Positions 54,098-55,923 of a stretch of 64,000 nucleotides of DNA are shown here, in pieces. Position 1 is the stretch's first letter. Each line of letters opens with the position of its first letter. Under the pieces are notes generated by a model. That model saw only the letters and a program-made list of their open reading frames with translations. It did no database searches and had not been told where the DNA came from. Position numbers and translations under genes: made by a program. This stretch comes from a virus. The stretch covers positions 1 through 64,000 of the IMG/VR virus record IMGVR_UViG_3300044846_001842; one strand, 5' to 3'.

Positions 54098-54949
54098 CTA
54101 AAAAATGTATCTAATTGTTTCTAAGGGAAAATACTTAGAATATAGTTCTTTAAATTGTTGAATTAAACTGTTTTTGAATTGCCATTGGTATCTAATATTA
54201 TCAGCAGCATACTGAGAGTTTTTAGACTCTTGAATTGTAGGTTGCCAAAGGTAATAGTTAACATCAGCTTTATTCCTTGAAAATTGATTTACATTATAAG
54301 TCATAAATATACATTCTGACTTAAAATCAATGCCTTGTAGTTGTTTAAATAATTCCTCATAGTCTTCTAACCAAGTAGGATAGTAAACTATAGGACTGAA
54401 ATTTATATGCACTTCCATTTTTGTTTGAAGTATAGGTATCATAGCAATTCTATCAGCTATGCTGTCAGTATTGGGTTCTAAGATACTTGATATAAATTGG
54501 GGCATAAGACTTACTCTTATTCTATGCTTACCCGGAGTCAAGTTATACTTTTGTAGCTTAAACTTTGTTGGGTATTTGGTGGCAAAAGTTGTTTTCAGTT
54601 TGTATTGTGTATTGAAGAAATCAAATACCTGTTGCCAATTATAGTGTTTACTATGTAAAGGCACATCAGTACTACATCCTATATCAACACAATAATAAGT
54701 GTCATCTACTTGATTAGGTTCTTTGGGCCAAGGCTTAGTGTCTACCCAGTCATAAATAGATCTTAGAATTTGCTCTGTGTTTTCATTGATATAAACCTTG
54801 TCATGATTATACCTACCTACATAGCAATTATGAGTAAGAATGTTATTAGCAAAGTAATTTTCATTATCTTTTACAGCAAAGTTATAAAAAATTTTGCTAT
54901 TTTTGTTGTCTAAAATCTTACTGATTCTCGTAATTTTTAATTTTCTCAT
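54098..54949 (-). CDS. C-half of split gene: Int-C (41 aa) plus C-extein of a spore-photoproduct-lyase-like radical SAM protein
   Basis: Intein blocks F/G FYNFAVKDNENYFANNILTHN|C, then SPL-like KEPNQVD..VDIGCSTD, FATKY, RIRVSLMPQ..LEP, HINFSPIV. Confidence 0.88.
   Translation of the reverse strand: MRKLKITRISKILDNKNSKIFYNFAVKDNENYFANNILTHNCYVGRYNHDKVYINENTEQILRSIYDWVDTKPWPKEPNQVDDTYYCVDIGCSTDVPLHSKHYNWQQVFDFFNTQYKLKTTFATKYPTKFKLQKYNLTPGKHRIRVSLMPQFISSILEPNTDSIADRIAMIPILQTKMEVHINFSPIVYYPTWLEDYEELFKQLQGIDFKSECIFMTYNVNQFSRNKADVNYYLWQPTIQESKNSQYAADNIRYQWQFKNSLIQQFKELYSKYFPLETIRYIF
54827..54949 (-). mobile_element. Split intein C-fragment (Int-C)
   Basis: Has its own ATG, ends His-Asn, followed by Cys+1 (54824-54826). 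Confidence 0.9.
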
Positions 54950-54950
54950 T

Positions 54951-55781
54951 ATGTTAATTTTTTACTCTCACATTGAAGCAGGAAAACATTTTAAATGTGA
55001 TCCAAGGACTGCAAAAAACAATCTACTCAATACCCAATACGTTATTGACAAATCTTCAGAGTATAACCCTAATACTTTATTTAGAACCTGTAAAAAATGT
55101 GAAAATAAATACACTTCTTCTAAAGGTAGGGCAGGATACTGTCCTAGTTGTAAAAATAAAATTTCTAAAAAAATATTAAATAGAGTTTGTAAAATCTGTA
55201 GTATTACTGCAACTAATATCAACCCTGTGTCTTTAAAATCTTGTATTTGTAAAAAATGTTCTCAGACAGGGATAGGAAGAAAGCTTCAAGCAATTTTTAT
55301 TTCAAATTTACAAACAGGTGTAAACAACTCTAATTTTGTACATGGTAATTCTACAATAAAAATATGGCAAAACAGTAGATGGGTAAAACTAAGAAAGAAT
55401 TACCCAAATAAAGTTTGTTTAAAATGTGGTAAAACAACTAATATACATTTACATCACATAATTCCTCAATGTTTATTACCTCATGAAGAAAAGTTTAACT
55501 TAGATAATATAATACCTTTATGTTCTAATCATCACAAAGAACTTCATCATCTTCAGTTAGATATTGTGCTTCTACCCAGCCTTTACCTACAATATAAAAA
55601 GGATGCTCAGCAGTTACAACAATTTTTTTACCTTCAACCTCAATTTCAATCCATGAGTTTGACTCCCTTGAAAAAATATGATGACATTTCTTTGGTTCAA
55701 CTAACTCCAAAGAATTATTATAAGATAATACAAAAGTGTCATCCTGAATTTTTTCAACAGGAATTTGCCCATTTGGTGTAG
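54951..55781 (+). CDS. HNH homing endonuclease, antisense to the split-intein gene
   Basis: NUMOD1-like start, CxxC pairs, GVNNSNFVHG, HNH core CLKCG..HLHHIIP..LDNIIPLCSNHHKELH; ATG at 54951 is likelier than TTG at 54894; TATTTTTG at 54898-54905 upstream. Confidence 0.85.
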   Translation: MLIFYSHIEAGKHFKCDPRTAKNNLLNTQYVIDKSSEYNPNTLFRTCKKCENKYTSSKGRAGYCPSCKNKISKKILNRVCKICSITATNINPVSLKSCICKKCSQTGIGRKLQAIFISNLQTGVNNSNFVHGNSTIKIWQNSRWVKLRKNYPNKVCLKCGKTTNIHLHHIIPQCLLPHEEKFNLDNIIPLCSNHHKELHHLQLDIVLLPSLYLQYKKDAQQLQQFFYLQPQFQSMSLTPLKKYDDISLVQLTPKNYYKIIQKCHPEFFQQEFAHLV

Positions 55782-55923
55782 AAATTAGTGTGCCTTTTTC
55801 TACACAATATGATTTCATACACCCTCCTAAACAGCCATAAATAAAATTAGGAGAAATAGCATCACTGCTTCTCCCATTATCTCTAGTTACTAGGGTTTTA
55901 GTCTTTTGTTTCTTGATTTCCAT
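55525..55923 (-). CDS. N-half of split gene: 39-aa N-extein of SPL-like radical SAM protein plus Int-N (93 aa)
   Basis: RDNGRSSDAISPNFIYGCLGGCMKSY, then intein block A CVEKGTLISTPNG, block B VTAEHPF, GWVEAQYL..DEVL, stop. Confidence 0.88.
   Translation of the reverse strand: MEIKKQKTKTLVTRDNGRSSDAISPNFIYGCLGGCMKSYCVEKGTLISTPNGQIPVEKIQDDTFVLSYNNSLELVEPKKCHHIFSRESNSWIEIEVEGKKIVVTAEHPFYIVGKGWVEAQYLTEDDEVLCDD
55528..55806 (-). mobile_element. Split intein N-fragment (Int-N)
   Basis: Cys1 at 55804-55806, TxxH block B, acidic end, TAG stop at 55525-55527. Confidence 0.9.

Follow-up and report, generated by a model that had tools for sequence, protein, structure and literature searches.

A split intein with an inverted HNH gene in a phage SPL-like gene: a fractured-gene variant with an antisense coding overlap

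In the fractured genes described by Dassa et al. 2009 (PMC2677866), all three open reading frames (ORFs) lie on one strand. Their endonucleases are GIY-YIG or Vsr-like, an HNH enzyme having merely been predicted as possible, and their overlaps are 6-69 bp long, same-strand, and join the 3′ end of the endonuclease gene with the C-terminal intein half (Int-C). Such genes have been proposed as an intermediate toward fully separated split inteins (PMC2677866). Inteins are also known in SplB (COG1533), for which the text searched of Novikova et al. 2016 (PMC4760082) lists 48 in Actinobacteria. Overprinted antisense genes, a third point of comparison, include HIV-1 asp (PMC8781085) and long antisense ORFs in Pseudomonas (PMC8850804). 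Here we analyze a stretch of 64,000 nucleotides from the virus record IMGVR_UViG_3300044846_001842 (positions 1 to 64,000; hereafter the window), in which an HNH homing-endonuclease gene lies inverted between the two halves of an intein, and the intein in turn interrupts a spore photoproduct lyase (SPL)-like radical-SAM gene. We read this locus, with a probability of roughly 0.8, as a mobile composite of an intein and a homing endonuclease in a phage gene, a variant of the fractured gene.

Three ORFs compose the locus, with two parts of the host gene on the minus strand and the HNH gene on the plus strand between them. In window coordinates, the features are as follows.

55923-55525, minus strand: ORF of the N-extein and the N-terminal intein half (Int-N), 132 aa, stop TAG at 55525-55527.
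55807..55923, minus strand: N-extein of the SPL-like radical-SAM gene, 39 aa, ending ...GCLGGCMKSY.
55528..55806, minus strand: Int-N, 93 aa, with Cys1 and block B (V-T-A-E-H).
54949-54098, minus strand: ORF of Int-C and the C-extein, 283 aa.
54827..54949, minus strand: Int-C, 41 aa, ending ...ILTHN and covering Intein_splicing profile positions 120-155.
54098..54826, minus strand: C-extein, 242 aa plus stop, whose first residue (+1 Cys) is the third Fe-S motif cysteine.
54951..55781, plus strand: HNH homing-endonuclease gene, 276 aa plus stop.
55525..55781, both strands: antisense overlap of 257 nt, HNH C-terminus (plus) against Int-N residues 9-93 plus stop (minus).
54947..54953, both strands: divergent start codons CAT-T-ATG, with the Int-C ATG at 54949-54947 (minus) and the HNH ATG at 54951-54953 (plus).
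54893..54905, plus strand: candidate HNH promoter box TTTGCTATTTTTG, containing TAnnTTTG, 53 nt before the HNH ATG and within Int-C codons.

The plus-strand frame is open from a TTG at 54894 to 55781. We take the true start of the HNH gene to be ATG 54951 and not TTG 54894, because conservation across 13 homologues starts there; the extra N-terminal residues annotated by some gene callers lack conservation. At its other end the frame stops 25 nt inside the splice junction. The original prediction for this DNA had described the 257-nt antisense overlap of HNH and Int-N, the identity of the HNH motif CSNHHKELH (55521-55547) with the reverse complement of the Int-N end DEVLCDD-stop, and the start codons of Int-C and HNH 1 nt apart. 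All three were confirmed at the positions listed, and the close spacing of the starts is conserved in relatives.

The identity of the host gene comes from its C-terminal part, which matches PF20903 (spore photoproduct lyase) in Pfam with 38 bits against a cut-off of 27. The gene is broken at the third Fe-S (radical-SAM) cysteine. Both intein halves give Hint and Intein_splicing signals, all below the Pfam gathering scores, and carry the residues of a class 1 intein: Cys1, T-A-E-H in block B, the C-terminal H-N and the +1 Cys. Int-N is 30-35% identical to other phage inteins over residues 1-90 and 37-48% identical to the contiguous mini-inteins of bacterial SPL genes, with whose C-lobe Int-C aligns. 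The N- and C-parts match uninterrupted intein-less alleles exactly at the junction and keep the original order and orientation. When IMG/VR was queried with the C-part, the 40 closest host-gene relatives were all without the intein (40/40), their exteins fused precisely, at identities of up to 89%; the first 40 residues of the N-extein were 85-100% identical in 38 of them and 56% identical in the two most distant. Since all 40 are empty, the intein plus HNH unit is a sporadic insertion, as expected for a mobile element. The Fe-S motif reads C-LGG-C-MKSY-C (CX3CX4C) both in the window's predicted spliced product (55807-55830 and 54824-54826) and in the empty alleles (L001-L039 junctions). The window's phage clade deviates in this from the canonical CX3CX2C, which is present in a second phage clade and in bacterial SPL genes. 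Recoding of the Int-N TAG was considered and rejected: read-through meets a TAA nine codons on, and a contiguous intein is not restored. No tRNA genes were found in the window.

These features suggest how the element probably arose and how it would work. The HNH gene sits inverted in the loop of a mini-intein, the usual position of an endonuclease, and so separates the two intein halves; the Int-N stop comes from antisense HNH-core sequence, and the Int-C start abuts the HNH start. The two host polypeptides would then trans-splice, as the intact splicing residues lead us to expect, restoring the third Fe-S cysteine. The HNH enzyme presumably cuts intein-less alleles, spreading the whole element.

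The most unusual property of the locus is the antisense overlap. Codon position 1 of one gene faces position 1 of the other, 2 faces 3 and 3 faces 2; with every third position thus set against a second position, sites silent in both frames are nearly absent. With the Int-N protein held fixed and synonymous codons redrawn from the phage's own usage, the HNH frame over Int-N in the window has 0 stops where 3.5 are expected (P about 0.003). Each of 16 distinct sequences (16/16) likewise has 0 stops in the HNH frame, with 3.5-5 expected and P(0) between 0.0002 and 0.03 per sequence. In contiguous mini-inteins of the same intein family from Ktedonobacteria, which contain no HNH gene, the corresponding antisense frame is interrupted by 7-8 stops. 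Eight disjoint sequence pairs, taken together, gave the following proportions of changed sites.

Overlap, non-silent in both frames: 0.053.
Overlap, silent in Int-N and non-silent in HNH: 0.090.
Overlap, non-silent in Int-N and silent in HNH: 0.171.
HNH-only region, silent: 0.428.
HNH-only region, non-silent: 0.101.

The sites silent in Int-N change less often than those silent in HNH (0.090 vs 0.171; Fisher test, p = 4e-4), and both classes change less often than free silent sites (p = 2e-39 and p = 1e-21, respectively), the Int-N-silent sites almost 5 times more slowly. Control inteins without HNH give 0.389 vs 0.163, the ordinary one-gene pattern and the opposite of the one in the overlap. 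In agreement with this, AT skew takes the opposite sign within the HNH body and is close to zero where the two genes overlap. Substitution rates in the two frames had been named by the original prediction as a check on dual-strand coding, and they bear it out: the overlap is constrained in both frames, the HNH frame more so. The shared DNA evolves at about half the rate of the remaining HNH gene, and the 77-codon HNH tail is itself under purifying selection. Stop avoidance, negative controls, substitution classes and natural experiments among relatives are thus four independent lines that support true dual coding.

Such a tail could also be a meaningless read-through, open by luck or codon bias, whose conservation is a shadow of selection on Int-N. 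Constraint on Int-N alone does keep tail-like antisense, since a Chthonomonadaceae genome without an HNH gene (G004, described below) retains a ghost of the HNH tail frame with 45% identity over 83 aa. The tail alone matched no family in Pfam, and AlphaFold2 gives it low confidence. However, that ghost is broken by a stop, as the frames of the HNH-free mini-inteins are by 7-8, the open frame in the window is improbable by resampling, and the Int-N-silent sites are slower than both HNH-silent and free silent sites, the reverse of the controls. A Dictyobacter HNH gene also retains the tail though its Int-N partner has decayed. We consider the read-through explanation highly doubtful.

The interlock geometry recurs in about 30 relatives from two phage clades and Rubrobacter. 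The 13 homologues mentioned above are protein sequences; the DNA layout was read in L063-L065, L045-L062 and bacterial genomes. A metagenome scan yielded three loci of the window's own clade (L063-L065). An alignment-based scan of IMG/VR yielded a second phage clade of 18 loci (L045-L062) with HNH identity of about 35%, and a single-sequence HNH scan of IMG/VR gave none. In all phage loci and in Rubrobacter L072, the split in an SPL-type gene falls at the third radical-SAM cysteine, an inverted HNH gene occupies the space between the halves, and the HNH stop lies 22-25 nt inside the Int-N splice junction. The length of Int-N varies with stop position and is 93 or 98 aa. These relatives bear on a trivial explanation, that the inverted HNH gene is an assembly or annotation artefact of a chimeric metagenomic contig. 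The window is an uncultured-virus assembly, but the same arrangement was assembled independently in >20 contigs of different studies and in bacterial genomes, and independent lake metagenome contigs span the junctions. An artefact is thus extremely improbable.

The relatives were found as several alleles: empty, contiguous mini-intein, split with HNH, split with an HNH remnant, and halves at separate loci. Both of the kinds that the original prediction had proposed to look for, the contiguous mini-intein and the empty allele, are among them, and the series fits its proposal that the inverted insertion made the split. One lake DNA run (X3) contains contigs with the intein-HNH insertion together with contigs in which the exteins meet without it (joint 54828 to 55816); the occupied and empty alleles of this run may belong to different but related phages.

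In Dictyobacter, an SPL gene whose mini-intein is contiguous (L066:1745-3211, plus strand) has immediately upstream of it an intact, free-standing, full-length HNH homologue that retains the tail (L066:761-1651, minus strand). Under the HNH tail is a decayed Int-N ghost containing stops, an arrangement suggestive of a former split in which a whole gene was restored later, by repair or by replacement. In a Rubrobacteraceae relative (L073:2323-2865), the HNH gene is without its first ~95 codons and has an in-frame TAA, with Int-N and Int-C intact; we read this as a decaying endonuclease within a persisting split. In the Chthonomonadaceae genome G004, the N-half (L149:972-1751) and the C-half (L074 and L075:1989-2891) of the SPL gene are on different contigs, the C-half on two contigs of the one assembly, and no HNH was found in the genome. 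The original prediction had held that the insertion cannot be deleted cleanly. This does not stand as worded: HNH is decaying in L073 and absent from G004 with the intein still split in both, so HNH can be lost, and it is the split that is not simply undone. It had also named homologues split at the same point without any HNH remnant as evidence against an origin of the split by HNH insertion. G004 is formally such a case, but the broken ghost of the tail frame remains in it, and secondary loss explains the absence.

Two further observations concern these relatives. The nearest DNA relative (L063, 85% HNH identity) has an in-frame stop in the N-extein (L063:1030-1383; ...GCL-stop-LGGC...), which may be an error at a coverage of only 3.7x; its upstream gene differs from that of the window, and the C-terminus of that gene product resembles a NUMOD1-type endonuclease DNA-binding tail. 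A radical-SAM-type protein of 316 aa (P0026) apparently has two inteins within a single cysteine motif: the first Cys is the site of a complete mini-intein, and the third that of the N-terminal half of a split intein.

The junction between the HNH core and Int-N suggests how the overlap may have arisen. Homology to mini-inteins runs in Int-N through ...E[VL]LC and then ceases; beyond ...LC, Int-N reads antisense HNH-core codons and then stops. This agrees with the claim that the HNH gene supplies the stop that splits the intein. A free-standing HNH protein of a Bacillus phage ends in the motif ...C-x-x-D-H-K-E-F-H-H-L, so the H-K-E-L-H-H-L of the window is native to the HNH family. The N-lobes of contiguous SPL mini-inteins end in ...G/D-D-E-L/V-L-C, so E-D-D-E-V-L-C is likewise native to the intein. 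In the observed frames, the native HNH ending (H-K-E-L/F-H-H-L) is the reverse complement of the native intein ending (E-D-D-E-V-L-C), and this chance complementarity may have helped the fusion. In our proposal, the HNH gene fused with the intein at this chance likeness and lost its own C-terminus. Its frame, which now extends 77 codons along the strand opposite nearly all of Int-N, would then have read on into that antisense, a stretch that would have been shaped into a selected tail. The tail has no relatives outside the HNH family of the window, which makes overprinting its most likely origin. A fuller version of this proposal, that the 77-codon tail was born de novo by overprinting the Int-N antisense and is now functionally necessary, that the interlock constrains both partners, and that the module has moved between bacterial and phage SPL genes, seems to us evenly balanced between true and false.

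The HNH protein itself was assigned by the motif C-x2-C ... HH ... N ... C-x2-H-H-x3-H, and three PHROG HNH families match the plus-strand protein (E about 3e-8). Its segments, with AlphaFold2 confidence as pLDDT (predicted local distance difference test), are as follows.

Protein N-terminus, plus strand: NUMOD1-like segment, pLDDT 86-92, with a weak NUMOD1-type Pfam match in the Dictyobacter homologue (L066).
Between the N-terminal segment and the HNH core, plus strand: two CxxC...CxxC zinc ribbons, by sequence motif.
Residues ~156-200, 55416-55550, plus strand: HNH core, pLDDT 82-85.
Residues 201-276, 55551-55778, plus strand: HNH tail, 77 codons, antisense to Int-N.

Family homology in Pfam and PHROG stops near residue 200-208. 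A PDB profile search with the HNH protein gave just weak matches to the IscB HNH core. In the GenBank phage collection the locus DNA was unmatched, and the HNH protein matched Bacillus phages weakly and in the core only. Helices of the tail are predicted to residue 230 at pLDDT 54-65 (AlphaFold2, 25 sequences). The 13 protein homologues are 49-95% identical and all full length at 273-290 aa, and the stretch best conserved among them is the part C-terminal to the catalytic motif. We suggest that the tail most likely serves DNA binding or stability.

A different possibility is that the HNH no longer homes and is a frozen or domesticated remnant in an immobile element, acting for example as an antisense RNA that tunes the host gene, a regulatory role that the original prediction had also raised. 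By sequence geometry, an HNH mRNA would have full complementarity to the host transcript for about 830 nt. The HNH gene has decayed in one lineage (L073), and its product is without two zinc-ligand cysteines in the second phage clade. However, the HNH body outside the overlap is under purifying selection, with a pN/pS (ratio of the proportions of non-silent and silent sites changed) of about 0.24 (pN 0.101, pS 0.428), and in the window clade the catalytic His, Asn and His are invariant, as are the zinc-ligand residues. The patchy occurrence of the element in close relatives, like the presence of empty and occupied alleles together, also fits an element that is still mobile. A remnant without homing activity is on this evidence unlikely.

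Any expression signals of the HNH gene must sit in Int-C or C-extein codons, because the inserted DNA is essentially a bare ORF. The spacing between the Int-C and HNH start codons is 1-2 nt in the window clade (CAT-T-ATG, CAT-AA-ATG), and in the second phage clade the two starts share the palindrome CATG. The original prediction had marked a -7 box for HNH at 54898, and TATTTTTG does lie at 54898-54905 within Int-C codons. The short motif itself is at chance frequency, with 96 matches of TAnnTTTG in the window against 97 expected. The 13-mer box occurs exactly once in the window, with looser matches at chance. A longer version, TTTTGCTAT[C/T]TTTG, is nevertheless shared by the two phage clades as a conserved element, its position being -53 in the clade of the window and -40 in the other. 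Between the clades it sits in differing Int-C codon phases and at differing Int-C residues, and this conservation despite a changed phase and residue favors a signal at the DNA level over a by-product of Int-C coding. The HNH gene is probably transcribed from this candidate promoter inside Int-C codons.

Several points weigh against our reading of the locus as a mobile element with a dual-coding overlap. Contigs of two RNA libraries cover the extein parts of relatives and a conserved piece of 35 nt and leave the HNH body uncovered. The pairs in the selection test are disjoint, yet partly dependent on the tree. A regionally lower rate of mutation or conversion could depress all overlap classes, but it is no explanation for the asymmetry between sites silent in one frame (0.090 vs 0.171). 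The Pfam HNH matches are below gathering thresholds (DUF968, 18.5 bits; HNH_2, 14.4 bits), and the missing zinc-ligand cysteines make activity uncertain in the second phage clade. The last 47 residues of the tail have pLDDT <50 in the AlphaFold2 model built with 25 sequences, so that a structural role of the tail is without support from the fold. Finally, the intein tree, from a short alignment with long branches, is unrooted, and the contiguous mini-inteins may be ancestral or secondarily re-fused.

The locus extends the fractured-gene model, suggesting that an HNH gene can split an intein, as Dassa et al. predicted without observing it, and can do so in reverse orientation. Most stages of the proposed pathway are represented among its relatives, from the empty site and the contiguous mini-intein, through splits with a live or a decaying endonuclease, to the separated halves. 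As an example of long antisense dual coding, here in both phages and bacteria, the overlap is unusually clean, with one partner clearly older, natural controls and deep conservation. The birth of a protein segment on the antisense of an existing gene, and its cost to both partners, thereby become directly testable. Of practical interest are a predicted compact natural split intein (93 + 41 aa) and an uncharacterised HNH enzyme whose candidate target is the intein-less junction.

Bacterial SplB inteins share the host family with the window and, in the loci examined, the insertion at the third radical-SAM cysteine. Those of Ktedonobacteria are contiguous and without HNH, unlike the window, and the text searched of PMC4760082 mentions neither an inverted HNH nor an overlap. 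In the full-text literature we found no report of an inverted endonuclease gene in a split intein or of an antisense gene over an intein, though coverage was incomplete and an earlier report is possible. Like HIV-1 asp and the Pseudomonas antisense ORFs, the tail is new coding on the antisense of an older gene, for which the evidence is an open frame and purifying selection. Unlike them, it overprints only a C-terminal extension of an older, recognisable enzyme, both partners belong to one selfish element, and the overlap, which comes with built-in natural controls, has been conserved across bacteria and phages.

Salmonella phages provide a cultured counterpart, in that the Int-N of uvsW in phage S16/SEA1 is about 35% identical to that of the window. 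In SEA1 (L042:1811-4540; also in S16, STP4-a and others), uvsW_1, a same-strand hypothetical ORF and uvsW_2 lie at one locus. The hypothetical ORF of SEA1/S16 lies between the Int-N-bearing and Int-C-bearing parts of uvsW, a classical fractured gene in cultured T4-like phages. Compared with the window, this system has short same-strand overlaps, another host gene and no antisense coding.

As in the fractured genes of Dassa et al. (PMC2677866), a conserved enzyme gene is broken at one locus, mainly in phages, and the invading element gives the upstream part its stop and abuts the start of the downstream part. The separated halves foreseen for fractured genes are found here in the Chthonomonadaceae genome. 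The window differs in that its endonuclease is inverted, with the host parts on the minus strand and HNH on the plus strand; in that the endonuclease is HNH and not GIY-YIG or Vsr-like; and in that the overlap is 257 nt long, antisense and with Int-N, the 5′ ends of HNH and Int-C standing back to back. The locus is thus a fractured-gene variant whose antisense coding overlap is well supported and old in evolutionary terms.

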